Assembly: GCA_045542295.1 (NCBI GenBank) | Contig: JAZQKT010000007.1 | Location: forward strand, 1-41,239 | Direction: 5' to 3' | From: Acutalibacteraceae bacterium | GTDB taxonomy: Bacteria; Bacillota; Clostridia; Oscillospirales; Acutalibacteraceae | DNA length: 41,239 nt | Part shown: positions 4,235 to 33,038 of the stretch, one piece after another | Layout: each line of letters opens with the position of its first letter | Position numbering within the stretch: the stretch's first letter is position 1 | Program-made: the position numbers and the translations under genes | Notes under the pieces: model-generated | Told to the model about the DNA's origin: nothing | The model's input: only the letters and a program-made list of their open reading frames with translations | The model's database searches: none

Positions 4235-4723
4235 TCAGGTGTATTTTTTAATAAATTTAAATTTGCAAAGCTTTACTATGAGTGCCGCAAAGGCTATTCC
4301 GAGCAGAGCGCCGCAGGAATCAATGAAAACATCTCTTAATTCGCCGCTTCTGCCGTTAACAAAGGTTTGGTGAAATTCATCACCGACCGAATACAAAATG
4401 CAAAAAAACAATGGCAACACGGTGCGGAGCTTAAAGGAAAGCTTTTTATAGGTCACAATGCTTAAAAAGGCGAGTACGCCTAAAATTCCGTAAATTGTGA
4501 AATGTGCCGTTTTGCGGACATAAAACTGTATTTTATGACTTAAAGCATCCTGTTCGCTTTTGGGTAGTTCATCAAAATCCTCAAAAAAAAGAGCGATGAT
4601 AACGGTCTTTAGGCGTCCGCTTGTTTTGGAGGAGGTTTCTGCCGTCTCGGCAGAAAGGCTGAAAATCAAAAGCATCCAAGACGCCAACAAAATTACGGTA
4701 ATTGTTCTGAAAATTTTCAGCAT
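4235..4723 (-). CDS. VanZ family membrane protein
   Basis: Four TM segments. VanZ-like motifs RKTAHFTIYGILG and DEFHQTFVNGRSGELRDVFIDSCGALLG. Confidence 0.75.
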   Translation of the reverse strand: MLKIFRTITVILLASWMLLIFSLSAETAETSSKTSGRLKTVIIALFFEDFDELPKSEQDALSHKIQFYVRKTAHFTIYGILGVLAFLSIVTYKKLSFKLRTVLPLFFCILYSVGDEFHQTFVNGRSGELRDVFIDSCGALLGIAFAALIVKLCKFKFIKKYT

Positions 4724-4783
4724 ATATTACTCCTTCCAATCAAAAACCGCCACCGTCAATGCCGGTGACGGCTGATATTTTAA

Positions 4784-5995
4784 TTATTTTACTTTTGAAT
4801 AGTAATTCATAGGGTTAACATAACCGTCCTTATTGCGCATTATGCCAAAGTGTAAATGGTAACCGGTGGAGTCACCCGTTGTGCCTACATATCCGATAAC
4901 CTGACCCTGTTTAACCTTTTGACCGTTGCTGACAGCGGTGGTATTCATATGAGCATACATTGCCTTAATGTGATCGCCACCTACAATACCGTGGTCAATA
5001 GCCACATGGTTACCCCAACCGCTACCGCATCGGCAACGGCTGCCCCTGTCCTTATGGGGACAGCTATTATAAACCTCATAAACAGTACCATCGGTAATAG
5101 CAACGATAGGCTTGCCGAATATACCTCCGCCTGAAATATCAATACCACGGTGTATTGTACCCCAACGTGGACCGTAATAAGAGGTGATATTCTGACAGCT
5201 TGGAACCGGCCACACAAAGCCGACTACAGAGTTAATAAAGGTTTGGCCCGAACCGCCGTAAAGAAGCTTATTAAGATACTCAGTTTTTTCCTTAATGGTG
5301 GCTTCAACAGCCGCATTATCCTTTTCTGCTTGGGACTGCTCCGAGGAAATTGAATTATAAATCTTCTGAGCGGCAGCTTCTTCTGCTTCAAGCTCCTTTT
5401 GAGCGGCAACTATTGTTGCACGAACTGCAACCTGTTCTTGGAGAAGCTTTTCGTTTTCTTGATTTTTTTCTTCAAGAACCTTTATTACGGCAACCAATTC
5501 CTCGATCATACGCTTGTCCCTTGATGAGATAGAAGCGGTAAGCTGTGAAAGCTGCAGAAAATCCGAAAAATTTTCTGCTCCCATAAGAATTTGAATGTTG
5601 CTGCCGGGATTGCTCATATAAATTGCGCGGATACGCTTTTTAAAGGCAAGCTTATTAGCTTCAATTTCCTTATTTTGGGCTTCAATTTCCTTCTTATTCT
5701 TGTCAATCTTGGCATTGATTGCATTGATTTCGGTATTGCAACGAACAACCTGCGCCTGAATATTGGCAATTTTTTTCTGAACGGCGGCAAGTATTGCTGA
5801 TTGACTTTGTTTTTCGTTCTTAAGACGTTTAATTTCAGCTTCAAGAGCGGCAGATTCCTTCTGTAAAGCCGCAATATCATTTCTAAGGGAGCTTTCGCTC
5901 GCGGCTTCTGCAATCCAATTTGTGCTGTTCAGCACAAGAAAGGTCAAACAAAAGCAAAGAAGCGCTGAAAGAAAACGGGTTATAATTTTTTTCAT
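4784..5995 (-). CDS. M23/LytM-family peptidase with a long N-terminal coiled coil (EnvC/PcsB-like FtsEX partner)
   Basis: Membrane anchor MKKIITRFLSALLCFCLTFLVL, a ~230-aa coiled coil, and C-terminal HRGIDI and GYHLHFG metal-binding motifs. The ATG at 5995 preceded by GGAGGA is preferred; the ORF-track start at 6061 would overlap ftsX. Confidence 0.85.
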   Translation of the reverse strand: MKKIITRFLSALLCFCLTFLVLNSTNWIAEAASESSLRNDIAALQKESAALEAEIKRLKNEKQSQSAILAAVQKKIANIQAQVVRCNTEINAINAKIDKNKKEIEAQNKEIEANKLAFKKRIRAIYMSNPGSNIQILMGAENFSDFLQLSQLTASISSRDKRMIEELVAVIKVLEEKNQENEKLLQEQVAVRATIVAAQKELEAEEAAAQKIYNSISSEQSQAEKDNAAVEATIKEKTEYLNKLLYGGSGQTFINSVVGFVWPVPSCQNITSYYGPRWGTIHRGIDISGGGIFGKPIVAITDGTVYEVYNSCPHKDRGSRCRCGSGWGNHVAIDHGIVGGDHIKAMYAHMNTTAVSNGQKVKQGQVIGYVGTTGDSTGYHLHFGIMRNKDGYVNPMNYYSKVK

Positions 5996-7867: not shown

Positions 7868-8944
7868 TTAATATTTAATCGGGTTGCTCTTTAAGTATTT
7901 GTTTACCATAAGAGCAATTTTGAATATGATTGCATGATCAAATTCACGCAGATCAAGACCTGTTATTTTCTTGATTTTTTCAAGTCTGTAAACAAGAGTA
8001 TTACGGTGTACGAAAAGCTTTCTTGAGGTTTCGGACACGTTAAGGTTATTCTCAAAGAAACGCTGAATAGTGAAAAGTGTTTCTTGATCAAGGCTTTCAA
8101 TAGAGCCTAATTTGAATACTTCTTTGAGGAAGGTTTCACAAAGTGTGGTAGGAAGCTGATAAATAAGTCTCGCAATACCCAAATTATCATAAGCTATGAT
8201 GGTTTTTTCGTTATCAAAAACCTTGCCTACCTCAAGTGCGGTTTGGGCCTCCTTAAAGGAGCGTGCCAAATCCTTAAGGTTGTCCACAGTAGTACCGATT
8301 CCGATAACTGCGTGGATATAAAATTCACCCGACATAGTGTCAGCAATGGTAGAAGCCAGCTTTTCAATGGTTTTGGGGTCAATGCCGGGCTTGGTTTCCT
8401 TAACAAGGGCAATATCCGTTTCGTTTATGCTGATAACAAAATCCTTTGTTTTATCGGGGAAAAGGTTTTGAACAATATCATAAACCGAAATATCATGATG
8501 CTCGGTAGCGCGGATAAGAATAACCGTACGCATAACATCACTGTTGAAATAAAGCTCACGTGCTTTAAGATAAATATCGCCCGGAAGAATATTATCAAGG
8601 ATGATGTTCTTGATAAAGTTGCTGCGGTCATACTTCTCATCGTAATAGAATTTGATGTTTGTAAATGTAACAGCTAATACAGAAGCGTATTTATTTGCTA
8701 AAACATCTTCTCCCTCAACAAATACTATGTAGTTTGGACCCTGCTGTGAGCCAAGACTTTTATAAGAGATGCCGCCGTTTACGATAAGCTCTGTTCCGAT
8801 AACGGGGAAGCTTTCTACGGTTTCGCCGATTTTGCCTAATTCACTACAGGCAATAACAGTGTAGTTTTCATCAATTATACCGAAGGTGCGGTCAATAGAG
8901 TCCTTCATTTGATGGATAACACCTTGGAAAAGACGGTTTGACAT
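7868..8944 (-). CDS. PucR/CdaR-family transcriptional regulator
   Basis: C-terminal PucR-type HTH (VSETSRKLFVHRNTLVYRLEKIKKITGLDL). 15 nt upstream of ftsE on the same strand. Confidence 0.7.
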   Translation of the reverse strand: MSNRLFQGVIHQMKDSIDRTFGIIDENYTVIACSELGKIGETVESFPVIGTELIVNGGISYKSLGSQQGPNYIVFVEGEDVLANKYASVLAVTFTNIKFYYDEKYDRSNFIKNIILDNILPGDIYLKARELYFNSDVMRTVILIRATEHHDISVYDIVQNLFPDKTKDFVISINETDIALVKETKPGIDPKTIEKLASTIADTMSGEFYIHAVIGIGTTVDNLKDLARSFKEAQTALEVGKVFDNEKTIIAYDNLGIARLIYQLPTTLCETFLKEVFKLGSIESLDQETLFTIQRFFENNLNVSETSRKLFVHRNTLVYRLEKIKKITGLDLREFDHAIIFKIALMVNKYLKSNPIKY

Positions 8945-9154
8945 GGTTTAAAACACTTCCTTTAATATTTAGATAATTAGAATTAATTAAGTATACGCAT
9001 AAAAATTAACATAATACCACAAATTTTATTTTACACAATATTAAGTCAATTTGCAAGCAATAATATTTAAAAATTAAAAAAAGTTACAAATTAGTTACAA
9101 AACATGTCGTTTTTGTTTTGAATACTTTGGCTGATGACGAGTAAGAATTTATTT

Positions 9155-11308: not shown

Positions 11309-11905
11309 ATGACAAATTCAGAAAAAAGAAAAGAACAGACAAAAAAATTGGTACTCGGTGCAGTAATGACTGCGTTGGTAATAATACTACAGTCGATTGC
11401 TAAATTTACTGCGTTTTTTGGACCTTTTTCAAGTGCAGTGGCATTAGTACCTATTGTAATCGGAGCAGCTATGTGCGGCACCGCAGTAGGCGCATGGCTG
11501 GGTTTTGTTTTTGGTGTTGTTGTATTAGCAACAGGTGATGCCGCATTGTTTTGGATGTTTGATATTCCCGGAACATTTATAACTGTACTTGCAAAGGGTG
11601 CGGCTTGTGGTTTATGTGCCGGTTTGGCATACAAGCTGTTGGAAAAATTCAACCGATTTGTTGCTGCTTATGCTGCCGCAATAGCCTGCCCTATCATTAA
11701 TACGGCAGTATTTTTGCTTGGTTGCTTTGTATTTTTTATGGACAGTGCAGACAAAATTGCGGCTCAATTAGGATTAAATGTTTCAGGAATGGCACTTTTC
11801 TGGACTCTTGCTATGGGGAATTTCCTTTTTGAGTTGGGAACAAGTATTGTTTTAAGCCCTGTAATAGTAAGAGTTTTAAGCATTGAAAAGAAAAGTAAAA
11901 TTTAA
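11309..11905 (+). CDS. Small multi-pass membrane protein resembling an ECF-transporter S (substrate-capture) component
   Basis: 198 aa, about six Gly/Ala-rich TM helices, basic N-terminus. A pantothenate substrate is only a guess from adjacency to coaX. Confidence 0.55.
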   Translation: MTNSEKRKEQTKKLVLGAVMTALVIILQSIAKFTAFFGPFSSAVALVPIVIGAAMCGTAVGAWLGFVFGVVVLATGDAALFWMFDIPGTFITVLAKGAACGLCAGLAYKLLEKFNRFVAAYAAAIACPIINTAVFLLGCFVFFMDSADKIAAQLGLNVSGMALFWTLAMGNFLFELGTSIVLSPVIVRVLSIEKKSKI

Positions 11906-11918
11906 CAGGGAGTAATAT

Positions 11919-12845
11919 ATGGCATTTTTGCATTTTTTGGAGAATTTAAGAAACCCCGTGTGCGATGCGTTTTTTTCTGTCGTTACGCATCTTGGTGAAG
12001 AAACCTTTTTTATTGTGTTTGGGCTTATCTTTTTTTGGTGCATTAACAAAAAAGAGGGCTATTATCTGCTGTCAATAGGCTTTATAGGTACGGTTTTAAA
12101 TCAGTTTTTAAAGCTTTTTTTCAGAGTGCCTCGCCCATGGGTTAAGGATAAAAGCTTCACCATTGTTGAGTCGGCAAGGGCAGAGGCTACAGGATATTCC
12201 TTCCCGAGCGGACATACCCAATCCTCGGTTGGAATTTTCGGAGGTATGGCACGCTGGAATAAAAATTTTGTCTTTAGAACAATTTGTATTTTGCTTTGTG
12301 TGCTGGTGCCTTTTTCAAGAATGTATCTCGGGGTACATACACCGGCAGATGTTTTGGTTTCTGTGGCTATAGGACTGGTTCTTATTTTCGGACTTTATCC
12401 GATTATCCACAAATGCTTTGAAAACATAAAGGCTATGCGGATTTTGCTTATAGTAATGGTTGCTTTGTCGGCAGGACTTTTAAGCTTTGTTTTGCTTTAT
12501 AATTTTCCTAAAGATGTTGACGCAAAGAATCTTGAAAGCGGAATCAAAAATGCCTATAAAATGCTTGGCTGTACCTTGGGTATATTTATTGCATTTGAAG
12601 TTGATAACAGGTTTATAAAATTTAAAACTGACGGCATATTTTCAGCACAAATTCTTAAATTGGCGCTTGGTGTAATTCCGATACTCGGTATAAAGGCAGG
12701 GCTTAAGGCTCCGCTTTATGCCCTTTTCGGCGGAAGCTTTTTGGCTGACGGTGTGCGCTATTTTCTGATAGTGGTTTTTGCCGGCTGTGTTTGGCCGTTG
12801 ACCTTTAAGTATTTTGCCAAAATAGGGGAAAAGCAGAGGCCATAA
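11919..12845 (+). CDS. PAP2-family (type 2 phosphatidic acid / undecaprenyl-PP-like) phosphatase with extra C-terminal TM helices
   Basis: The three PAP2 motifs: KLFFRVPRP, SFPSGHT, SRMYLGVHTPADV. Confidence 0.8.
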   Translation: MAFLHFLENLRNPVCDAFFSVVTHLGEETFFIVFGLIFFWCINKKEGYYLLSIGFIGTVLNQFLKLFFRVPRPWVKDKSFTIVESARAEATGYSFPSGHTQSSVGIFGGMARWNKNFVFRTICILLCVLVPFSRMYLGVHTPADVLVSVAIGLVLIFGLYPIIHKCFENIKAMRILLIVMVALSAGLLSFVLLYNFPKDVDAKNLESGIKNAYKMLGCTLGIFIAFEVDNRFIKFKTDGIFSAQILKLALGVIPILGIKAGLKAPLYALFGGSFLADGVRYFLIVVFAGCVWPLTFKYFAKIGEKQRP

Positions 12846-12847
12846 GT

Positions 12848-13135
12848 ATGACGGTTGATGAAATTTTAAAACCGATGATTGAAGAAGAATTAAAAAGATA
12901 TGAAGAACTCGGAAATAATATAAAACTTAAGTCTGTACGCTCTTTGCGACGGAGGTATACTGTTACGGCACTTATTGCTTTGGTTGTATTATTTCCGCTT
13001 CTTTTTATCACCATACCGGTGTACATTTATAAAATGAAAAGGCTTTCTGACAAAGCAGAGGTTATTTTGACATTGGCAAAGAAGTCCCCCGATAAGACGA
13101 TACCACAGCTTATTGCAGAGGAAATTGCCGAATAA
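12848..13135 (+). CDS. Hypothetical small membrane protein
   Basis: The ATG lies 2 nt after the PAP2 stop. One central TM segment (VTALIALVVLFPLLFITIPVYIY). No family recognised. Confidence 0.45.
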   Translation: MTVDEILKPMIEEELKRYEELGNNIKLKSVRSLRRRYTVTALIALVVLFPLLFITIPVYIYKMKRLSDKAEVILTLAKKSPDKTIPQLIAEEIAE

Positions 13136-13210
13136 AACATTAGTTGTTTGGCCAAATAGTGTTTAAGGGATCTTTAAAAATTTAGTTATAAATAATTCTT
13201 GGAGTTTGAA

Positions 13211-14959
13211 ATGAACAGATTTATTCATTTACTGTATGTTCCTACAATGAATTGCAATATGAGCTGTAAATATTGCTATTTGGGAGAAAATACGGTTGAG
13301 CTTAAAAGCGATAAGGGCTATTTGGAAACCCTTAAATTTGCTGTTGAAAAGTTCAAAGCGGAGGAGGTTATTCCGTTTAATATTTCTTTGCACGGTGGGG
13401 AGGTTACCACCCTTTCAAAGGAAAATTTCAGAGAAATTATAGAATACATAAGCAATTATTATGAGGAAAACGGTGAGCTTATCCGTGAAAACGGGTTTAA
13501 AGTTAATAAGCCACACATAAAAACAAATCTTTTTTGTCTTGACAGACACATTGAAACCCTTAAGGAATTTGATGTAAGCATAAGCGGCAGCTTGGATTTA
13601 CCCCTTTCGTTGCACGATGAATACCGTGTCACAAAGGGCGGCAAAGGAACGTTGGAGACAATACTTAAAAACATCCAAATGCTCTCTACGCTGCCTAATA
13701 GAAAAAAAGTATCGGCTACAATTTTTGAGGAGCATTTTAACAGATTAGATGAAATTGTAAGTGATATTCGTTTTTTGGCAGATAACACCTGCCTTAATAT
13801 GAATGATTTTAATTTTATGATAGGCTTTACACCTCAAACCGAGAGTGAGGTAAAGCTTACGGCTCTTTCCGAAAAAAACCAGGTTGCCTTATATGAGCGT
13901 ATGAAAAAAGAGTTTGCGGGCACCGATTTGGAGGAGGGGCTTCGTGGTGCTTGGTTTGCGGAATTCACGCCTGCATATTGCACAAATTGTGACAATTGCG
14001 GAGAAAAGTTTTTCTTGCTTGAAAAAAACGGTGATATTTATTCCTGCGTAAGAGGACAAGGTAATCCCGATTTTTATTACGGAAATATTTACCGTGATTC
14101 TGTTGAACAAATTTTTGGTACTGCCAAAGCAAAGATATTTTTAGCCCATAACCGACAGGGATTTACAGAGGAATGCGGAAATTGTGAGCATTTACATCTC
14201 TGCAAAACAGGCTGTCCATACGTTAAAACGATTTACGGCAGCAGTAAATCTTATACCTGCCGTTTGCAGAAAAAGATTTATGCGGACGGTGAATATGAGG
14301 CTATCCCCGAAAATTTTGCGTACCATTACCTTTTGAAAAATCATCCCGAAGAGGCTGAACAATACTTTAAAACAGAGTATGATGCAAACAGCCTGCCCGC
14401 ACTTATAGAGCGTGACCCTAAATTGCAGGCGGTTTATGACCCCGAAGCCTTTGTTTTGAGTGTTGACGGTGTTGAGCATAAGCTTCAGTCACAGCTTTTA
14501 AAGCGCACACGGGATTTCGTATTTATTGGCAACCAAAGCAGTATAAAGCTATATGTTAAGGAAGACACAATGGACGCTTTAAGCGATTATCCGATTAACA
14601 ATGCACTGTATATTCAACTGCTCAGCGGTGATACGGTGGTTTACGGTGATGAGCAACGTGAAAAGCAAGAGCATATTATGACACATTTGATTTATAAAAG
14701 AACGGTTGCGGCAGAAAAATCCGACAAAACGGGATATTACTGTGTTGATTTGAGCGATTTGCTTAAGATTTACGGTCCTCGGCTTTCCAAAGAAAAACCC
14801 AATAATTTGTTTTTCACTACAGCCGCACTGCGAGACTATCACTATTCAAAGCAAAAAAATAATGGTTTTTACCATATAAACGCATTGAATTTGCCTTTCC
14901 AAAACATTGAATTATTTTATTTTGATTTTAATAACCGAGAGGAGTTTTCTTATGATTAG
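13211..14959 (+). CDS. Radical SAM/SPASM-domain enzyme with a long uncharacterised C-terminal extension (rSAM-1)
   Basis: CX3CX2C at residues 15-22 (CNMSCKYC). GGE-type SAM motif (SLHGGEVT). Full SPASM Cys pattern: CGEKFFLLEKNGDIYSC (CX10GX4C), CGNCEHLHLCKTGC (CX2CX5CX3C), then YTC. The ATG at 13211 is preceded by GGAG; the ORF-track TTG at 13199 is less likely. Confidence 0.9.
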   Translation: MNRFIHLLYVPTMNCNMSCKYCYLGENTVELKSDKGYLETLKFAVEKFKAEEVIPFNISLHGGEVTTLSKENFREIIEYISNYYEENGELIRENGFKVNKPHIKTNLFCLDRHIETLKEFDVSISGSLDLPLSLHDEYRVTKGGKGTLETILKNIQMLSTLPNRKKVSATIFEEHFNRLDEIVSDIRFLADNTCLNMNDFNFMIGFTPQTESEVKLTALSEKNQVALYERMKKEFAGTDLEEGLRGAWFAEFTPAYCTNCDNCGEKFFLLEKNGDIYSCVRGQGNPDFYYGNIYRDSVEQIFGTAKAKIFLAHNRQGFTEECGNCEHLHLCKTGCPYVKTIYGSSKSYTCRLQKKIYADGEYEAIPENFAYHYLLKNHPEEAEQYFKTEYDANSLPALIERDPKLQAVYDPEAFVLSVDGVEHKLQSQLLKRTRDFVFIGNQSSIKLYVKEDTMDALSDYPINNALYIQLLSGDTVVYGDEQREKQEHIMTHLIYKRTVAAEKSDKTGYYCVDLSDLLKIYGPRLSKEKPNNLFFTTAALRDYHYSKQKNNGFYHINALNLPFQNIELFYFDFNNREEFSYD

Positions 14960-15329
14960 CGTTAAACCTACTACCTACAATGAGGCTTTGAGACTTTCAA
15001 GATGCTTTCAAATGCGGACCTATTCGCCGGAGATTACCGATGAGATTATAGAGTCAACTTATAATTTTGTGTCTGAAAATCCTGCAAATAAGGTTGGAAT
15101 GTCTAACGGAACTATTTATTTTGTAAATGCACAAGGCGAAAAAACAAAGGTTTATGCTGTATCAACAAGTGATACCTTTGACAGTCTGGTGCTTAGCGCA
15201 TCTCTGTTTAGAGTGGTAAATAAGAGTGTGGATAATGGCGGCTGCGGCTGCGGTTGTTCAAGCAATAACAACAACAATAATAACAATAACAATAATAACA
15301 ACAATAATAATAACAATAATAACGGTTAA
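14952..15329 (+). CDS. Candidate radical-SAM substrate (precursor peptide or small protein): ~100-aa N-terminal region + GGCGCGCSS + Asn20 + Gly
   Basis: The ATG at 14952 lies 7 nt after GAGGAG and overlaps the rSAM-1 stop by 8 nt. The C-terminus is ...VNKSVDNGGCGCGCSSNNNNNNNNNNNNNNNNNNNNG*. It is sandwiched between two SPASM enzymes. Confidence 0.65.
   Translation: MISVKPTTYNEALRLSRCFQMRTYSPEITDEIIESTYNFVSENPANKVGMSNGTIYFVNAQGEKTKVYAVSTSDTFDSLVLSASLFRVVNKSVDNGGCGCGCSSNNNNNNNNNNNNNNNNNNNNG
15264..15323 (+). repeat. Imperfect (AAY)20 trinucleotide tract encoding 20 consecutive Asn
   Basis: 11 AAT and 9 AAC codons interleaved irregularly (aat aac aac aac aat aat aac aat aac aat aat aac aac aat aat aat aac aat aat aac). 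Confidence 0.95.
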
Positions 15330-15333
15330 GCGT

Positions 15334-16050
15334 ATGAGAAACAGGATTTATCAAACTGTACACGTGTATAACGGCAATAGTTTAAGTGTGACTTATAAAT
15401 ATTTTATGATTGCTGTTATAATTGCAAGCATTGTACCTCTTACGCAGAAGCAGGAATTTGCTTTTTTAAAGGGTGTAGAGACAGTCTGCCTTGCTGTTTT
15501 CGGTCTTGATTTTGTTTTGCGTTGGATTACGGCTGACTATAAGTTTAAAAAGAAAAGCTGGGTTTCCTTTGTGAAATATCCCTTTAGGCTTATTTCGATT
15601 ATCGATTTGATGTCAATGTTTGCGCTCCTTGTGTCCGTAACTGATTGGTTTGATAATCTTAAGATGGCTGCCGCTTTATCGGTATTTAGAATCGTGCGTA
15701 TTTTCAGGTATTCCGAAAGTGTAAGAACTATTTTGGATATACTGAAAAAATCCAAAAAACCGCTTTTGGCGGTTGGCGGCTTGGCTCTTGGCTACATAAT
15801 GATTTCCGCTATTGTTGTATTTAATGTTGAGCCTGATTCCTTCAAAACCTTTTTTGATGCGATTTATTGGTCAACGGTTTCACTGACAACCGTAGGCTAT
15901 GGTGATATTTACCCCGTAACAGTATTGGGAAGAACGGTGGCAATGCTGTCATCCTTCTTTGGTATTGCTATTGTTGCGCTTCCTGCAGGTATTGTGACTG
16001 CAGGCTATATGAACGCAATTAAGAAAAAGAGCGAAGATGAGGAAGAATAA
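15334..16050 (+). CDS. 6-TM voltage-sensor-type potassium channel (Kv/KvAP-like), with no cytoplasmic ligand-binding domain
   Basis: Selectivity filter TTVGYGD (15886-15906). S4-like helix LSVFRIVRIFRYSESVR with Arg at every third position. Six hydrophobic segments plus a pore helix in 238 aa. The ATG at 15334 lies 4 nt after the preceding stop. No clear SD. Confidence 0.85.
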   Translation: MRNRIYQTVHVYNGNSLSVTYKYFMIAVIIASIVPLTQKQEFAFLKGVETVCLAVFGLDFVLRWITADYKFKKKSWVSFVKYPFRLISIIDLMSMFALLVSVTDWFDNLKMAAALSVFRIVRIFRYSESVRTILDILKKSKKPLLAVGGLALGYIMISAIVVFNVEPDSFKTFFDAIYWSTVSLTTVGYGDIYPVTVLGRTVAMLSSFFGIAIVALPAGIVTAGYMNAIKKKSEDEEE

Positions 16051-16053
16051 GCA

Positions 16054-17094
16054 ATGTCTTGTCAGGATAAAAACCGCCTTACGTTACAGTTTCATATTAC
16101 GGGGCGCTGTAATTTGCGCTGTAAGCACTGCTACCGCACGGAAGGTGATATAGAAACGCTTTCCTTTGATGATATAAAAGCTGTTATTGACAGTGTAAGG
16201 GAATTGCGCAAAAGCTATAATGCGGCGCACGGAATTAAAAAAAGAGCTCATATTAATTTGACAGGCGGAGAGCCTTTTTTTAGAGAGGATATTACCGATA
16301 TAATTAAATATATTGCAAAATATTCCAAAGAGCTTACTTATGCAGTTTTGACCAACGGTCCTTTTATTAATGATGAAATAATTGCTCTTTTAAAGGAAAC
16401 AAGGGTTTCGTTTGTACAGCTAAGTCTTGACGGCAAACGAAAAAGCCATGATTTTTTGCGGGCAAAGGGCGACTATAAGCGTGTTCTTAAAACCGCTCGC
16501 TTGTTAGAGTCTAACGGAATAAGAACACATATCAGCTTTACCGCAAACAGAAGCAATTATAAGGATATTCCCGCAGTGGCACGCGCCTGCAGAAGAAACG
16601 GAATAACCAAGCTTTGGTCTGATCGTTTAGTACCCATCGGCAACGCCAAAGAGCTTGAAGAGCTTAAAATAACCAAGGAGATATTCCCCGATTATGTAAA
16701 AATGCTTACCAAAGCAAAGGGGAATGTTTTTACAAGATTTTTTTATCCCAAAACACAGGTCACGCTTAATCGTGCACTTCAGTTTATCGATTCGGATGGT
16801 TCTGTCTATTCCTGCAGTGCAGGCAAAAGTCTTATTACTGTTGATGAGTTTGGCAGAATTATGCCCTGCAGAAGAATGCCGATTATTTGCGGCGATATTA
16901 AAACTGCCGATATTAGTGAGGTTTACTACGGCAGTGAGGTTTTTAGGCGCTTGAGAGACGAGCGTATACCTAAAGAATGCCTTAACTGTGCATATAATTG
17001 TTTTTGTGTAGGCGGTGCAAAATGCCAAAGCTTTGCCGAGTACGGTGACTTTTCTAAAGCAGACCCCGTCTGTGCTTTAAAAATGAAAATTTAA
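16054..17094 (+). CDS. Radical SAM/SPASM-domain enzyme (rSAM-2)
   Basis: CX3CX2C at residues 19-26 (CNLRCKHC). TGGEPF SAM motif. SPASM pattern: CSAGKSLITVDEFGRIMPC (CX12GX4C), CLNCAYNCFC...C, then DPVC. RBS GAGGAAG 8 nt upstream. Starts 3 nt after the channel stop. Confidence 0.9.
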   Translation: MSCQDKNRLTLQFHITGRCNLRCKHCYRTEGDIETLSFDDIKAVIDSVRELRKSYNAAHGIKKRAHINLTGGEPFFREDITDIIKYIAKYSKELTYAVLTNGPFINDEIIALLKETRVSFVQLSLDGKRKSHDFLRAKGDYKRVLKTARLLESNGIRTHISFTANRSNYKDIPAVARACRRNGITKLWSDRLVPIGNAKELEELKITKEIFPDYVKMLTKAKGNVFTRFFYPKTQVTLNRALQFIDSDGSVYSCSAGKSLITVDEFGRIMPCRRMPIICGDIKTADISEVYYGSEVFRRLRDERIPKECLNCAYNCFCVGGAKCQSFAEYGDFSKADPVCALKMKI

Positions 17095-17101
17095 ATAACG
17101 A

Positions 17102-17139
17102 ATCCCCCTATGGCGCGAAAATGCCGTAGGGGGATTTTT
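17102..17139 (+). terminator. Rho-independent terminator closing the rSAM/channel operon
   Basis: TCCCCCTATGGC-gcgaaaat-GCCGTAGGGGGA (12-bp stem with one G-U pair), followed by TTTTT. Confidence 0.8.
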
Positions 17140-17153
17140 GGGTATGGGTTTGG

Positions 17154-17558
17154 CTAAGGCTTGCACCTGTTGCAGGGTGTGTAACCGTCACTTAAAAGTT
17201 CTTCGCGATTATAGGTTATGTATTTGTTCGTTTCATTCATATTTTTAGCCGAGCCGCAATCGGACTTGTGAAACACCTTGCTTTTTATATTAGCATAATA
17301 TTTCACTTTTTCGGTCGGTTGAATATCAGTGCTTTGGGTTTGGGCAGTAACCTTATCTGCAGGGATAACCGAGCTGACAATCGAAGTGTCCGCACCTTTT
17401 GCGGTTTCGGTTTTGTAGCCGTTTACGGTACCGTCGGTCGGCATATTTATCGAGACCGATTTTCTTGAAGAAGTGTCGGTCTGTTTATTGCAAGCGCAAA
17501 CCGAAAGCGAAAATATCAGAATTAAAAATAAAGTTGACAGTCGTCTTAAATTTGTCAT
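17154..17558 (-). CDS. Putative lipoprotein with a C-terminal Cys-rich (H..C...C..C) motif
   Basis: Signal peptide/lipobox LILIFSLSVCAC. The C-terminus is KVFHKSDCGSAKNM...GYTPCNRCKP (putative small metal-binding module). The ATG at 17558 after AAAGGA is preferred to the TTG at 17579. Confidence 0.6.
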   Translation of the reverse strand: MTNLRRLSTLFLILIFSLSVCACNKQTDTSSRKSVSINMPTDGTVNGYKTETAKGADTSIVSSVIPADKVTAQTQSTDIQPTEKVKYYANIKSKVFHKSDCGSAKNMNETNKYITYNREELLSDGYTPCNRCKP

Positions 17559-17572
17559 AACTGTTCCTTTCT

Positions 17573-17815
17573 CTAACAAATTTCTTGATCCAAATTATCG
17601 AATTCGGGAGTAGAAAAGAATTCACCGATAGTAATATCTAATCCGTCACAAAACTTTTTGATAGTGGTAATTGAAACATCTCTGCGTGCAGAATTAAGCA
17701 TACTATAGGCGGTTGACGGGGTAACGCCCGAGCGGTTAGCCAGTTCATTTACCGTTATTTTCCTTTCTTCGCAAAGCTCTTCAAATCTGTTACACACGAC
17801 ATCCTTAACGCTCAT
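17573..17815 (-). CDS. XRE-family helix-turn-helix transcriptional regulator
   Basis: HTH ITVNELANRSGVTPSTAYSMLN. The ATG at 17815 lies 5 nt after AGGTGA; the ORF-track GTG at 17824 sits inside that RBS. Confidence 0.8.
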   Translation of the reverse strand: MSVKDVVCNRFEELCEERKITVNELANRSGVTPSTAYSMLNSARRDVSITTIKKFCDGLDITIGEFFSTPEFDNLDQEIC

Positions 17816-17855
17816 TTTCTTCACCTCTGTAAAAATTCTATGCTTTTATGCGCTG

Positions 17856-28215: not shown

Positions 28216-28240
28216 TATTATATAATAAAGACTAAATGCT

Positions 28241-28480
28241 TTGATGGGAATAAGTAGCTGATATTTTAAATTAAGAGAGAAAGCGGTTGGTGAAAGCTTT
28301 TTGAAAGATATTTAGCGAAGCTATCCCTGAGTAGCTCCCGAAAGGGCAGACGGCTGTCACCGTTAAATGACTTTGAGTGCAGAAATATTATTTCTGAATT
28401 CAGGTGATACCACGGATAGACTGATTCTTGTCAGACTAAACATTCGTCCTGAAGTCTTATGACTTCAGGATTTTATTTTT
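28241..28480 (+). promoter_or_regulatory. T-box riboswitch leader, apparent Ala (GCU) specifier
   Basis: Stem I with the AGTA S-turn strand, the AGAGA box (28274-28280) and the distal loop GGTTGGTGAAAGC. Specifier loop GAA-GCT-A (GCT at 28320-28322). Stem III hairpin at 28380-28396. T-box sequence AATTCAGGTGATACCACGG (28397-28415). TTCAGG can pair with CCTGAA (antiterminator), competing with the terminator TCCTGAAGTC-ttat-GACTTCAGGA + TTTTATTTTT (28447-28480). Confidence 0.8.
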
Positions 28481-28496: not shown

Positions 28497-28979
28497 ATGA
28501 AATACGAAATACTCAAATTATTAGCCCGCAATGCGCGTTTTACTGCAGAGGAAATTGCAACAATGCTTGAGATAACCGAGCAAGAGGTTGAAAGCAGTAT
28601 TAAAGAGCTAGAAAAGGACGGGCTTTTAAAAGGCTATAAGGCGGTTGTTGACTGGGAAAAGCTTGACAGCGCTTATGTTTCGGCTATAGTTGAGCTTAAC
28701 GTTGTACCTAAAGCCGGCCTTGGCTTTGAAGAGGTTGCAAAAAAGATTATGGCATACAGTCAGGTTGAGTCGGTATATCTTATGTCGGGTGTTTATGACC
28801 TTAATGTTGTGGTTAAGGGTAAAACCTTGCGTGATGTTTCATCCTTTGTGGCAAAGGAGTTGGCAACTATAGATTCCGTAACCTCAACCACAACACATTT
28901 TGTAATGCGTAGATATAAGGAGCTTGATGTTGAGCTTATCTCTGCCGAGGAGGATGACAGGGGGCAACTCTGGGTATGA
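28497..28979 (+). CDS. Lrp/AsnC-family transcriptional regulator (AlaR/YugG-like)
   Basis: N-terminal HTH_AsnC (ILKLLARNARFTAEEIATMLEITEQEV) plus a C-terminal RAM/AsnC_trans_reg domain. 4-nt overlap with the downstream aminotransferase. Confidence 0.85.
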   Translation: MKYEILKLLARNARFTAEEIATMLEITEQEVESSIKELEKDGLLKGYKAVVDWEKLDSAYVSAIVELNVVPKAGLGFEEVAKKIMAYSQVESVYLMSGVYDLNVVVKGKTLRDVSSFVAKELATIDSVTSTTTHFVMRRYKELDVELISAEEDDRGQLWV

Positions 28980-30151
28980 TAGATTATTCAAAGGTTTTAA
29001 ATAAAACCGTTTTAGATATGAAGCCGTCGGGAATAAGAAAGTTTTTCGATATTGCCGCAACTATGGAGGATGTAATATCCTTAGGTGTCGGCGAGCCGGA
29101 CTTTCAAACCCCTTGGCAAATAAGAAAGGCCGGTATTGAGTCACTTGAGAAGGGAAAGACAAAGTATACCTCTAACAAGGGTGAAATAAGGCTTCTTAAT
29201 GAAATTTCAAAGTATATGAAGCGCAAATATGGGCTTTGTTATGAACCTGAAAATGAAATACTTGTAACTGTTGGCGGAAGTGAGGCTATTGATGCCTGCG
29301 TGAGAGCATTGGTCTCCTGCGGTGATGAGGTTATTATTCCGCAACCGAGCTATGTTTGCTATGAGCCCATAACCCGTCTTGCAGGCGGTGTGCCGGTTAT
29401 AATTAACACTAAAGCCGAAAATGATTTCAAGGTAACGCCTGAAGAACTGAAAAACGCTATTACCGATCGCACAAAGCTGATAATTTTGCCCTACCCATGC
29501 AACCCTACGGGAGCAATAATGGAAAAGCAGGATTTAATCGGGCTTTATGAGGTGATTAAGGATACAGATATAATTGTGTTATCTGATGAAATATATTCAG
29601 AGCTTACCTTTGGCGGCGTGTCGCATTGCTCACCCGCATCGGTTGAGGGAATGTGGGAAAGAACCGTTACAATTAACGGCTTTTCAAAGTCCTTTTCAAT
29701 GACGGGCTGGCGCTTGGGCTTTGCCTGCGGACCAAAGGAAATTATGGAGCAGCTTATTAAAATTCATCAGTATGCAATAATGTGCGCTCCTACAACATCG
29801 CAGTTTGCCGCTATTGAGGCACTAAAAAGCTGTGATGAGGATGTAGAGCATATGCACAAGGAATATAATATGCGCCGAAGAATTATGGTTTCGGGCTTTA
29901 ACAAAATCGGACTCACCTGCAGAGAGCCAAAGGGCGCTTTTTATGCATTTCCATCCATACAGTCCACAGGAATGAGCAGTGAGGAATTTTGTGAAAAGCT
30001 GCTTTACAGTAAAAAGGTTGCTGTAGTGCCGGGGACTGCTTTCGGTGACAGTGGTGAGGGCTTTATAAGAGCATCATACTGTTATTCTGTTGAGCATATT
30101 AATGAGGCTATAAAGCGCATAGGCGAATTCTTAAAGGAAATAAAGGCGTAA
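28976..30151 (+). CDS. Class I/II PLP-dependent aminotransferase (AlaT/YugH-like, probable alanine transaminase)
   Basis: PLP-Lys motif NGFSKSFSMTGWRLGF, NPTG motif (PCNPTGA), ~391 aa. The substrate is inferred from the Ala T-box and the AlaR-like partner. Confidence 0.8.
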   Translation: MIDYSKVLNKTVLDMKPSGIRKFFDIAATMEDVISLGVGEPDFQTPWQIRKAGIESLEKGKTKYTSNKGEIRLLNEISKYMKRKYGLCYEPENEILVTVGGSEAIDACVRALVSCGDEVIIPQPSYVCYEPITRLAGGVPVIINTKAENDFKVTPEELKNAITDRTKLIILPYPCNPTGAIMEKQDLIGLYEVIKDTDIIVLSDEIYSELTFGGVSHCSPASVEGMWERTVTINGFSKSFSMTGWRLGFACGPKEIMEQLIKIHQYAIMCAPTTSQFAAIEALKSCDEDVEHMHKEYNMRRRIMVSGFNKIGLTCREPKGAFYAFPSIQSTGMSSEEFCEKLLYSKKVAVVPGTAFGDSGEGFIRASYCYSVEHINEAIKRIGEFLKEIKA

Positions 30152-31442: not shown

Positions 31443-33038
31443 ATGAAAACCGAAAAATTACGGCTTCAGGATGGCTACAATAAGGCTGTAGACCGAGCAA
31501 CCGAGATACTCCAAAACGGCGGTATTGTTGCAATTCCCACAGAAACGGTATACGGACTTGCGGCATCCGCCTATGATGAAAATGCCATTAAAAAGGTTTT
31601 TGTTGCCAAGGGAAGACCGCAGGATAACCCTCTCATTGTGCATATTTCGGATATGGATATGCTGAACGAGGTTGCCGCGGATATTCCAAAAGAAGCACTT
31701 AAATGTGCTGAAAGATTTTGGCCGGGACCCTTTACTATGGTGCTTAAAAGAACAAACAAAACAGCCCCTTGCGTATCAGCAGGTCTTGATACAGTTGCGG
31801 TAAGAATGCCGAGCGATGAGGTGGCTTTGGACATAATAAAAAGGAGCGGTCTGCCGCTTGCCGCACCGTCGGCAAACAGGTCGGGTTCACCAAGCCCCAC
31901 AAATGCCTTTCATGTTGAAAACGATTTGGACGGTAAAATAGATGCAATAGTTTTTGGCAGTGAGTGCGGTGTGGGAGTGGAATCTACGGTTGTTTCCTTT
32001 TGCTGCAATCCGCCCCGCCTTTTGCGACCGGGCGCTGTAACCTTTGAGGAGCTTTCAGAGGTTATCCCTGATATTACGCAGGATAAGGCAGTTTTAGCAG
32101 AGCCCCAAAGAGGTGAGGCTGTGGCCTCTCCCGGAATGAAATATAAGCACTATGCCCCAAAAACCGAAAGCTATTTGGTTGAGGGGGACGCTAAAAGCTT
32201 TGCCGAGCTTGTAAACAGTGAAGAAAACAGTCTTGCGGTTTGCTTTGAAGAGGAAGCCGGCTTAATTAAAATACCCAAGCTTGTTTACGGCAAGGAAAAA
32301 AATGAGTTCACTTTAGCGCACGAGGTTTTTTCGGTTTTGCGTAAGGTTGACAGCTTTGAGGTGGGACGTGTATTTATCCACGCTCCGTCAAAGCAGGGCG
32401 TTGGTTTGGCGGTTTATAACCGTCTTATAAGGGCAACGGGCTTTAGGGTTATAAAGCTTAATACAAAGGAAATAATCGGTCTTACAGGCCCTACGGGCGC
32501 TGGCAAGAGCAGTCTTACCGAAACCGCAAAGCATTACGGATATAAGGTGATTGATTGTGATGCTTTGGCGCGCAAGGCGGTTGAAAAGGGAACAAAAGGG
32601 CTTGAGGCATTAATAAAAGTCTTTGGAGAGGATATACTCCTATTAGACGGCAGTCTTAATCGCCGAGAATTGGCAAGAAAAGCTTTTTCAACTAAAGAAA
32701 ATACCGAGCTTTTAAATTCCACTTTATTTCCGTTTATTAAAGAGCTGGTAGAGCAGGAAATGGAAAATGTTCAAAGGGTTATTTTGGATGCCCCCACCTT
32801 GTTTGAAAGCGGGATCGATGCGGTTTGCACCAAAACTCTTGCTGTTTTGGCAAACAGCGATATTAGACTGAAAAGAATAATGGCGCGTGACGGATTAACA
32901 AAGGATGCGGCTTTGCTTAGAATGAATGCAGGCAAGGATGATGATTTTTATAAGCAAAGTGCCGATGCGGTGATTTTTAATAACGGAAATGCTGATGAGT
33001 TTATAGGTGAATTCAAAGCATTTTTAACTAATTTATAA
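31443..33038 (+). CDS. Fusion protein: L-threonylcarbamoyladenylate synthase (Sua5/TsaC, YrdC + Sua5 domains) + dephospho-CoA kinase (CoaE)
   Basis: Residues 1-~335 carry the YrdC fold (AIPTETVYGLAA, ...APSANRSG) and the Sua5 C-terminal domain (SPGMKYKHYAP). From ~345, the CoaE P-loop IIGLTGPTGAGKSS runs through to the C-terminus. It is a single uninterrupted ORF. Confidence 0.85.
   Translation: MKTEKLRLQDGYNKAVDRATEILQNGGIVAIPTETVYGLAASAYDENAIKKVFVAKGRPQDNPLIVHISDMDMLNEVAADIPKEALKCAERFWPGPFTMVLKRTNKTAPCVSAGLDTVAVRMPSDEVALDIIKRSGLPLAAPSANRSGSPSPTNAFHVENDLDGKIDAIVFGSECGVGVESTVVSFCCNPPRLLRPGAVTFEELSEVIPDITQDKAVLAEPQRGEAVASPGMKYKHYAPKTESYLVEGDAKSFAELVNSEENSLAVCFEEEAGLIKIPKLVYGKEKNEFTLAHEVFSVLRKVDSFEVGRVFIHAPSKQGVGLAVYNRLIRATGFRVIKLNTKEIIGLTGPTGAGKSSLTETAKHYGYKVIDCDALARKAVEKGTKGLEALIKVFGEDILLLDGSLNRRELARKAFSTKENTELLNSTLFPFIKELVEQEMENVQRVILDAPTLFESGIDAVCTKTLAVLANSDIRLKRIMARDGLTKDAALLRMNAGKDDDFYKQSADAVIFNNGNADEFIGEFKAFLTNL

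Follow-up and report, generated by a model that had tools for sequence, protein, structure and literature searches.

Radical S-adenosylmethionine (SAM) enzymes with a SPASM domain are a main source of new peptide chemistry. The sulfatase-maturating enzyme anSME (TIGR03942; PDB 4k36-4k39) acts on a Ser/Cys-containing protein segment, not on a short leader-core peptide. Thioethers are formed by SkfB and CteB, synthases of sactipeptides and ranthipeptides, whose Cys-containing cores are encoded adjacent to the synthase genes. In the QhpD/QhpC system of quinohemoprotein amine dehydrogenase, a SPASM enzyme cross-links a small protein which acts outside the cytoplasm. Here, we compare with these systems a row of four genes from an Acutalibacteraceae bacterium (assembly GCA_045542295.1, contig JAZQKT010000007.1, positions 1 to 41,239; this whole stretch of 41,239 nt is called the window). 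The gene row resembles SPASM-dependent maturation systems of the anSME, QhpD, and sacti-/ranthipeptide types, but falls outside every named family that was tested.

All four genes are on the forward strand. They code for a first radical SAM/SPASM enzyme (rSAM-1; 13211-14959, 582 aa), a small protein which ends in a run of Asn residues (14952-15329, 125 aa), a K+ channel (15334-16050, 238 aa), and a second radical SAM/SPASM enzyme (rSAM-2; 16054-17094, 346 aa). A previous interpretation of this DNA, made without database searches (the sequence-only reading), treated the four genes as one inseparable system. We consider it likely, with a probability of about 0.6, that the window carries a variant of an undescribed maturation cassette which is widespread in gut and rumen Firmicutes. 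This cassette would consist of a core pair (rSAM-1 and the poly-Asn protein), a membrane partner, rSAM-2 as an accessory enzyme, and the channel as an optional component.

The core pair of rSAM-1 and a poly-Asn protein

A scan of GTDB, with one genome per species, revealed 287 genomes which encode a relative of rSAM-1, and the best 80 were analysed (56-81% identity). Together with loci found by exact-protein look-up, this resulted in 86 distinct loci (designated by L numbers), of which 80 have an informative downstream region (at least 450 nt after rSAM-1). An open reading frame (ORF) of 105-145 aa with a terminal Asn run directly follows rSAM-1 in 79 of these 80 loci (about 80 species), and its start usually overlaps the rSAM-1 stop codon. 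The proposal that the 125-aa ORF is a substrate is thus well placed: judging from this synteny, the first enzyme, rSAM-1, very probably acts on this ORF. The more general claim of a single four-gene system holds for rSAM-1 and the small ORF but not for the other two genes, as 10 of 67 informative loci have the channel and 8 loci have rSAM-2. Because of the co-occurrence across loci, the truly conserved unit is rSAM-1 plus the small ORF, and the channel and rSAM-2 are accessories in one sub-lineage. The window itself has the rSAM/SPASM enzyme of about 580 aa with the family C-terminal domain and the poly-Asn ORF, and it lacks the upstream LRR_5 gene that is typical of the cassette (see below).

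In the 80th locus (L018), a degenerate poly-Asn remnant (8850-8990; …SCGCASCGGSGNNNNNSSNNNIG) follows rSAM-1, and an intact, Cys-bearing poly-Asn gene (4593-4982) is found further upstream, preceding the gene for a leucine-rich repeat (LRR) protein. The intact copy and the decayed remnant therefore indicate duplication and turnover of the substrate gene. Two separate LRR/rSAM-1/poly-Asn cassettes occur in one 'Bacilli' metagenome-assembled genome (MAG) (L076 and L077; JAGBES010000032.1 and JAGBES010000006.1).

The core pair is found in Acutalibacteraceae, Oscillospiraceae, Lachnospiraceae, many gut 'Bacilli' MAGs, and, on contig NZ_JACRYT010000006.1, the isolate Zhenpiania hominis BX12. The closest genome match is an Acutalibacteraceae MAG, with rSAM-1 being 81% identical. 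The rSAM-1 relatives form more than 120 protein clusters at a level of at least 60% identity, all of about 580 aa, and rSAM-1 from the window aligns over its full length with those from 80 loci (57-81% identity). For one distant relative (P0210 on contig L176), the contig ends too early to reveal a downstream ORF. The genomic surroundings of the cassette vary from locus to locus, and a conserved gene downstream of the poly-Asn ORF is lacking in most cassettes.

rSAM-1 consists of an anSME-like radical SAM/SPASM core (about residues 1-358) and a family-specific C-terminal domain. The CX3CX2C motif, the GGE motif, and the SPASM Cys pattern, which had been recognized by eye in both outer enzymes, are indeed present in both, and both exceed the Pfam gathering cut-offs for Radical_SAM and SPASM. 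In rSAM-1, the motifs are CNMSCKYC (residues 15-22), HGGEVT, and CX10GX4C (C263...G274...C279). The scores are 38.3 bits for Radical_SAM (cut-off 29.5) and 23.9 bits for SPASM (cut-off 21.5), Fer4_12 is also above its gathering cut-off, and the SPASM model TIGR04085 is passed with 42 bits (cut-off 27). When compared to the NCBIfam equivalogs, all 50 matches are below the respective cut-off, including those to the named SPASM maturases DynA, DarE, PapB, and QhpD; the best scores were obtained for DynA (102 bits, cut-off 450) and anSME (99.1 bits, cut-off 349). The match to QhpD is weak (70 bits, cut-off 453), and, unlike the QhpD system, the cassette has no dehydrogenase subunits, no QhpE protease, and no QhpF exporter, while its substrate family is unrelated.

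The closest relative of rSAM-1 by sequence and by structure is anSME. A Foldseek search retrieved anSMEcpe (4k37) as best match (E 2e-13, target-normalised TM-score about 0.67), and comparison by hidden Markov models (HMM) gave an E value of 8e-5 over residues 13-357; the next matches to the core in Foldseek and HMM searches are CteB, ChlB, and SuiB. Both enzymes lack an N-terminal RiPP recognition element (RRE; RiPP, ribosomally synthesized and post-translationally modified peptide), each contains a complete SPASM domain (two auxiliary clusters), and rSAM-1 is presumed to act, as anSME does, on a Ser/Cys-containing protein segment. They differ in that rSAM-1 scores far below the anSME cut-off, has an extra C-terminal domain of 220 aa, and has Val in the position of Asp277: the pair Cys276-Asp277 of anSMEcpe aligns with Cys279-Val280 of rSAM-1. 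Also unlike anSME, the tail of the small protein is devoid of the sulfatase motif C/S-x-P/A-x-R, and no sulfatase is encoded nearby.

The C-terminal domain (14291-14956, forward strand; residues 361-582, about 220 aa) is beta-rich and highly conserved, with the invariant motifs YGDEQR.KQ.H and NLPF.N.E. In the AlphaFold2 model, the block-mean pLDDT is about 75-92 over residues 361-540 and 35-60 in parts of 541-582. The domain has no match in PDB, nor in Pfam or NCBIfam (June 2026 release), neither of which holds a model for this domain or for the small protein, and a Foldseek search with the whole rSAM-1 model retrieved radical SAM cores only. A HMMER search of 1.84 billion representative proteins resulted in 92 matches, all from this family; about 83 of these are shorter proteins, and the others have about 588-616 aa with the domain at their C-terminal end. 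Because the domain is found only in its own family, it yields no functional lead.

In the AlphaFold2 model of the small protein, residues 1-92 form a folded N-domain, which is followed by a disordered Ser/Gly-rich tail. The pLDDT exceeds 90 over residues 1-90 (two helices, five strands) and stays below 50 in the tail. In the window, the protein ends with ...NGGCGCGCSS-N20-G, and its C-terminal Lys-C fragment is SVDNGGCGCGCSS-N20-G. The Cys-Gly motif GGCGCGCSS (residues 96-104; 15237-15263, forward strand) is the clade-specific part of the tail, and GC(G/S)GCSS-Nn-G is common to fifteen close homologues of the window ORF. The Asn run follows immediately (15264-15323, forward strand; 20 mixed AAT/AAC codons, then one Gly codon and the stop codon). 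Across the family, the run is 6-20 residues long (median 12), that of the window being the longest. At most one residue follows (R, G, S, A, Q, H, or none), and the 12 residues preceding the run are 50% Ser and 24% Gly. Cys is absent from the tail in most family members. The Cys-Gly repeat, which the sequence-only reading had singled out, is therefore not the substrate hallmark; the hallmark is the Ser/Gly-rich poly-Asn tail.

The small ORF from the window matches no Pfam or NCBIfam profile, including those for the long-leader RiPP precursors NHLP and Nif11. When 29 diverse members were searched against Pfam, no family was found in more than one member, and all E values were at least 0.0014, with scores below the gathering scores. 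A profile of the 29 N-domains has no sequence match in PDB, and Foldseek searches against PDB and BFVD gave no match to the fold (best E 0.14 and 0.07, respectively). Proteusins such as polytheonamide can be named as an analogy only: they have a structured N-terminal region of about 100 aa and an Asn-rich core which is modified by radical SAM enzymes, resulting in a membrane-active product. Their PoyD-type epimerases are not SPASM enzymes. The N-domain differs from proteusin leaders as it matches neither NHLP nor Nif11, and the cassette differs from proteusin systems in having no methyltransferases, no proteases, and a tail of homopolymeric Asn rather than a mixed core.

Asn codons in the runs of the family are 588 AAT and 415 AAC, and such mixed codons point to selection on the protein rather than to a slippery DNA repeat. 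The run might nevertheless be regarded as a leader which senses Asn-tRNA, or as a programmed frameshift site from which a fusion of the small ORF and the channel would result. A single codon family is repeated over a long stretch directly ahead of another gene, and in the window, in L009, and in L020 no stop codon interrupts the +1 frame from the run into the channel ORF. This open frame is, however, a trivial result of the AAT/AAC composition, and the ORF encodes a conserved folded domain. A frameshift or attenuator role was rejected because the offsets to the channel vary by locus and because, in most cassettes, nothing conserved is found downstream; we consider a regulatory run highly improbable.

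For the core pair, we propose that the C-terminal domain of rSAM-1 would dock the folded N-domain of the small protein, in place of an RRE, and that the tail would be threaded into the SPASM active site. rSAM-1 would then modify the tail through hydrogen abstraction by the 5'-deoxyadenosyl radical at Ser or Asn carbons, with cross-linking or epimerisation as candidate reactions. The product may be a modified protein rather than a released peptide, because the N-domain is large and folded and because the core contains neither a protease nor an exporter.

The LRR_5 partner and the second enzyme

The sequence-only reading overlooked the usual third partner, an LRR_5 (BspA-type) membrane protein which is absent from the window. 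Among the 82 loci with sufficient upstream sequence, 77 encode an LRR_5 protein (Pfam E values from 1e-59 to 1e-89) which ends just upstream of rSAM-1 or overlaps its start. The LRR proteins have 251-722 aa, and 61 of 76 carry a lipoprotein/signal sequence or a membrane anchor at their N-terminus.

In the clade to which the window belongs, the LRR gene is preceded by a single-pass membrane ORF of about 91-103 aa. The N-terminal motif of this ORF is fused onto the 485-aa LRR protein in L010. The window has a single-pass transmembrane ORF of 95 aa (12848-13135, forward strand), which is outside the region covered by the sequence-only reading. It shows 38% identity to the 103-aa ORF of L001 (tblastn), also matches upstream ORFs in L009 and L013 as well as the N-terminus of the L010 LRR protein, and has no match in Pfam or NCBIfam. 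Across loci, its N-terminal motif recurs together with a transmembrane segment. Judging from these matches, the ORF belongs to the cassette and corresponds to the cytoplasmic N-terminal segment and transmembrane helix which, in related cassettes, are fused to the LRR_5 protein or directly precede it. In several other clades, the LRR N-termini are similar by eye only, no alignment having been made. An LRR homologue was not detected by tblastn anywhere in the 41-kb window, which has lost the LRR gene and kept only the 95-aa transmembrane stub.

In five loci, rSAM-1 and the poly-Asn ORF are present but no LRR_5 gene is found immediately upstream. The window, L052, L062, and L083 have none anywhere in the fetched flanks, and in L171 the LRR_5 gene is located downstream of rSAM-2. 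In Z. hominis, a 234-aa multi-pass membrane protein occupies the LRR_5 position. As LRR_5 is gone from the window and replaced in Z. hominis, the minimal core consists of rSAM-1 and the poly-Asn protein, to which a membrane or surface protein is usually added. We propose that a membrane protein with a short cytoplasmic N-terminal segment, usually with an extracellular LRR_5 region, would be the normal third component. Such a partner points to action at the cell envelope, where the product may act together with the membrane or LRR protein.

The regular occurrence of the LRR_5 gene directly upstream of rSAM-1, often overlapping its start, could also mean that the exported LRR_5 protein is the real substrate. 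It would be modified in the cytoplasm in an anSME-like manner, with the small poly-Asn protein as accessory subunit or chaperone of rSAM-1. In line with this, anSME, the closest relative, acts on exported proteins, and the N-domain of the small protein is a stable fold and not a typical leader. We consider this quite improbable, since the five loci just described dispense with an upstream LRR_5 gene and the disordered tail with its conserved composition resembles a threaded substrate. Moreover, the LRR proteins differ greatly in length, and no conserved target motif was noticed in them, although no systematic search was made.

The second enzyme, rSAM-2, carries the motifs CNLRCKHC (residues 19-26), TGGEPF (the GGE motif), and CX12GX4C (C254...G267...C272). 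It scores 78 bits for Radical_SAM (cut-off 29.5) and 29.8 bits for SPASM (cut-off 21.5). Its best NCBIfam scores are TIGR04053 (141 bits), the radical SAM enzyme of the ACGX system (TIGR04340; 129.5 bits, cut-off 400), and PapB (NF047865; 104.2 bits, cut-off 340), the latter two matching over the full length and all three scoring below cut-off. The closest solved structures are SkfB (7e-17), CteB (5e-15), SuiB, and PqqE, which align only past their N-terminal RRE; the alignments begin at residue 113 of SkfB and 98 of CteB. rSAM-2 is devoid of an RRE, as its CX3CX2C motif starts at residue 19 and there is no Pfam match to PqqD.

By sequence, rSAM-2 is thus related to the sacti-/ranthipeptide synthases, with SkfB, CteB, PapB, and the ACGX enzyme as closest relatives. 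It shares with these synthases that a Cys-containing substrate candidate is encoded adjacent to it (8 of 8 loci). It differs from them by the missing RRE and by scores far below their cut-offs of 340-400. In addition, the presumed substrate is a protein of 125 aa with only 2-3 Cys, unlike sacti-/ranthipeptide precursors, and its tail has GGCGCGCSS rather than the Ala-Cys-Gly-Xaa repeats of the ACGX system. Viperin-like similarity is only weak (PADLOC pVip, 83 bits; NF038283, 70.6 bits with a cut-off of 180) and a SPASM domain is present, so that an assignment as viperin/pVip and a reading as a defence system were rejected.

The gene for rSAM-2 was found in 8 distinct loci. It is located right after the channel in the window, L001, L014, L018, and L173, after an extra inserted gene in L012 and L174, and after the small ORF without a channel in L171. 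When a Cys tail was scored as at least 2 Cys within the 15 residues before the Asn run, each of the 8 loci with rSAM-2 had such a tail, as compared to 1 of the 59 loci without it. The co-variation is strict (8/0/1/58 for both, rSAM-2 only, Cys tail only, and neither among 67 loci; p 1.4e-9 by Fisher test, uncorrected for phylogeny), and it also holds within the clade (8/0/1/9, p 4e-4). According to the rSAM-1 tree, both traits flip between sisters: L009 has neither Cys nor rSAM-2 and L171 has both, whereas L010 and L013 have neither. The last Cys of the tail is typically separated from the first Asn by two residues. In the sub-lineage of the window, the tail would thus have gained a Cys-Gly motif, and rSAM-2 would most likely cross-link its Cys residues, as suggested by the strict co-variation. 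We consider, with moderate confidence, that rSAM-2 is an accessory Cys-directed enzyme which was probably recruited from a broader subfamily.

That rSAM-2 is exclusive to the cassette was rejected, as three homologues with 62-63% identity are located elsewhere. Genomes with stand-alone rSAM-2 homologues include GCA_017537175.1 and GCA_017421025.1. Stand-alone homologues are found beside paralogous membrane proteins of about 400-510 aa (L179/L180, 1771-5997; L181, 4846-6324). These membrane proteins occur in three tandem copies in L179 and as one copy in L181, show 30-45% mutual identity, and have no Pfam match; they may represent a separate conserved partnership of the rSAM-2 subfamily. The extra ORFs between the channel and rSAM-2 in L012 (9890-10693, 267 aa) and L174 (6090-7502, 470 aa) share a repeated N-terminal module of about 100 aa (about 32% identity) and lack an informative Pfam match.

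The potassium channel

The channel protein is predicted to have six transmembrane segments. Its assignment as a voltage-sensor-type K+ channel, already made from the bare sequence, is borne out by profile and motif: Pfam assigns Ion_trans (88.5 bits, cut-off 25) and Ion_trans_2 (57.9 bits), the selectivity filter is TVGYGD, and S4 has Arg in every third position (R119, R122, R125). The filter and the three Arg residues are invariant in 7 homologues. The Ion_trans fold, TVGYGD, and the Arg-repeat S4 are shared with the prokaryotic K+ channels of the KvAP/MVP type (NF040645). The score against the MVP equivalog is, however, 44 bits with a cut-off of 300, and, unlike MVP, the channel from the window belongs to a large unnamed family of gut Firmicutes channels of about 235 aa.

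The ten informative loci with a channel are the window, L001, L009, L012, L014, L018, L020, L170, L173, and L174. The channel starts 4-15 nt past the stop codon of the preceding poly-Asn ORF (gaps among loci are 4, 14, 15, 14, 14, 14, and 5 nt), except in L018 with its degenerate remnant (29 nt). Inseparability of the four genes does not hold: L009, L020, and L170 have a channel but no rSAM-2, and L171 has rSAM-2 but no channel. When conservation of the neighbourhood is taken as the test, rSAM-1 retains the small ORF and not the channel, while for rSAM-2 the outcome is divided, since homologues also occur in unrelated loci.

A metagenome scan with a channel alignment retrieved 572 relatives, and the best 80 of these were examined (38-57% identity). 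All 80 are stand-alone, with no rSAM-1, poly-Asn ORF, or rSAM-2 nearby, so that a channel family specific to the cassette was rejected. In a neighbour-joining tree, the 11 cassette-linked channels form one clade which excludes all 70 stand-alone sequences, and the rSAM-1 tree indicates channel loss in L010, L013, and L171. This fits a single capture from a common stand-alone family, after which the channel was probably kept or lost by lineage. In the alignment, no feature distinguishes the cassette-linked channels from the stand-alone copies. Within the clade, the channel is associated with Cys-bearing tails (8/2/1/7, p 0.015).

From this distribution, the channel would be an optional accessory, which may or may not be coupled to the product. 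In our proposal, it was captured once and kept directly after the substrate gene in part of the sub-lineage. The view that it is a functional partner and not a passenger is unsupported in that form; the distribution among loci is compatible with a real accessory role and equally with a long-lived passenger.

An integrated four-gene system, in which the channel is target, receptor, immunity, or export route of a doubly modified Cys-Gly/poly-Asn peptide, nevertheless deserves to be weighed. The four genes are closely joined and share one terminator; the order rSAM-1/small ORF/channel/rSAM-2 recurs in L001, L014, L018, and L173 in differing genomic contexts, and L012 and L174 show it with one additional gene in between. 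Monophyly of the linked channels and their association with Cys tails also agree with such a system. Nonetheless, 57 of the 67 cassettes do without the channel, it is combined with a Cys-free tail and no rSAM-2 in L009 and L020, rSAM-2 occurs without it in L171, and the wider channel family, from which the linked copies are not distinguished, is stand-alone in all of the best 80 metagenome loci. We thus regard an integrated system as unlikely.

The opposite extreme, in which only rSAM-1 and the small ORF are functionally linked and both the channel and rSAM-2 are passengers inserted downstream, seems similarly doubtful. It would account for homologues of similar identity to both in unrelated contexts, for their repeated loss while the core stays, and for the other inserts at the same position (the 267-aa ORF in L012, the 470-aa ORF in L174, and ABC2_membrane plus a kinase in L170). 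It would not account for the strong co-variation of rSAM-2 and tail Cys, which flips between sister lineages, nor for the position of the channel after the substrate gene, which was kept while rSAM-1 diverged to 63% identity.

A more specific and rather speculative reading is that rSAM-1 installs a new modification along the Asn tract and that the product acts at the membrane with the LRR_5 anchor and, in the sub-lineage of the window, with a dedicated Kv-type channel. The modification could be serial epimerisation, or carbon-carbon or carbon-heteroatom Asn-Ser cross-links which would rigidify the polar tail, and the product might be a modulator or auxiliary subunit of the channel, or a counter-measure.

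Several points weigh against the cassette as we propose it. The enzyme-substrate relation of the core pair is deduced from synteny. The nearest known chemistry, that of anSME, is probably not conserved in rSAM-1, because Asp277, which we take to be the catalytic base next to Cys276, aligns with Val280. A RiPP leader would not usually be as large and as well folded as the N-domain, and neither a protease nor an exporter is part of the core. L170 has a Cys tail but no rSAM-2 within 5 kb (the single exception), the Fisher tests ignore phylogeny, and three homologues of rSAM-2 (62-63% identity) are encoded in unrelated surroundings where no poly-Asn gene is close by. Of the cassettes, 85% have no channel, and the channel was repeatedly lost inside its own clade.

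Surroundings of the cassette and implications

The layout given by the sequence-only reading is correct: the four genes are co-directional and tightly packed, with junctions of -8 nt (14952 vs. 14959), +4 nt (15329 to 15334), and +3 nt (16050 to 16054), and are followed by one strong terminator. This intrinsic terminator (17100-17141, forward strand) has a 16-bp stem-loop (17100-17137) followed by a U run; its folding energy is -28 kcal/mol (z = -5.1), and 0 of 200 shuffles were as good. Sequences resembling a Shine-Dalgarno site are found upstream of rSAM-1 (TTGGAG), the small ORF (GAGAGGAG), and rSAM-2 (GAGGAAG), and no obvious one was found ahead of the channel gene. Scans with NCBIfam and Pfam confirmed that a protease, an ABC exporter, or a PqqD-like RRE is not among the four gene products. 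No Rfam match for a riboswitch or other RNA control was found near the operon.

Housekeeping genes flank the row: rpsR/ssb/rpsF-like ORFs, a type III pantothenate kinase-like ORF, an ECF S-component, PAP2, PhoH-, YbeY-, Era-, and RecO-like ORFs, and MutS2. The PAP2 phosphatase gene (11919-12845) stops 2 nt ahead of the 95-aa transmembrane ORF. Because of this spacing and because no terminator is visible upstream of rSAM-1, the cassette may here be transcribed jointly with the ECF S-component and PAP2 genes (11309-12845). In other loci, the cassette has no conserved PAP2 neighbour.

Convergent with the cassette are two overlapping ORFs on the minus strand (17154-17579, 141 aa; 17573-17824, 83 aa). 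The first has an N-terminal hydrophobic segment and a Cys, resembling a lipoprotein signal by eye, and its C-terminus is weakly Ada_Zn_binding-like (21 bits, below cut-off); the second is a Cro/C1-type helix-turn-helix protein. Further downstream, a T-box leader (28232-28454, forward strand; Rfam RF00230, 123 bits, gathering score 93) precedes a 160-aa ORF (28497-28979) and a class I/II aminotransferase (28976-30151). A 531-aa ORF (31443-33038, forward strand) unusually joins Sua5/TsaC, which modifies tRNA (threonylcarbamoyl-AMP synthase, with Sua5_C), to a C-terminal dephospho-CoA kinase (CoaE) from coenzyme A biosynthesis.

The statement that no described family fits this gene set was upheld. 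Scans with NCBIfam, Pfam, and PADLOC place no protein of the window cassette in a specific family: no NCBIfam model is matched at its cut-off, and the small ORF has no counterpart in Pfam or PDB. A literature search on radical SAM, SPASM, or RiPP systems with polyasparagine or a K+ channel returned nothing relevant, most papers in subscription journals being outside its coverage.

The system is real, widespread, and apparently undescribed, and the four-gene, channel-centred picture covers only a clade-specific elaboration of it. It represents a substrate class which is not yet curated, with a folded carrier domain and a poly-Asn tail, paired with an enzyme that bears a unique domain. The pair is found in at least 287 species-level genomes of Firmicutes from the human and animal gut, including the cultured Z. 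hominis BX12, and thus provides a defined and easily testable enzyme-substrate pair for finding a new modification. The presence or absence of tail Cys, which tracks the second enzyme, is a natural experiment. If the product of an Asn-tract modification does act with the channel, it would be the first case in nature in which a radical-SAM-modified protein is coupled to an ion channel. The links to an LRR surface protein (near-universal) and to a K+ channel (clade-specific) hint at a role in the envelope or in ion handling of these abundant but little-studied gut anaerobes.

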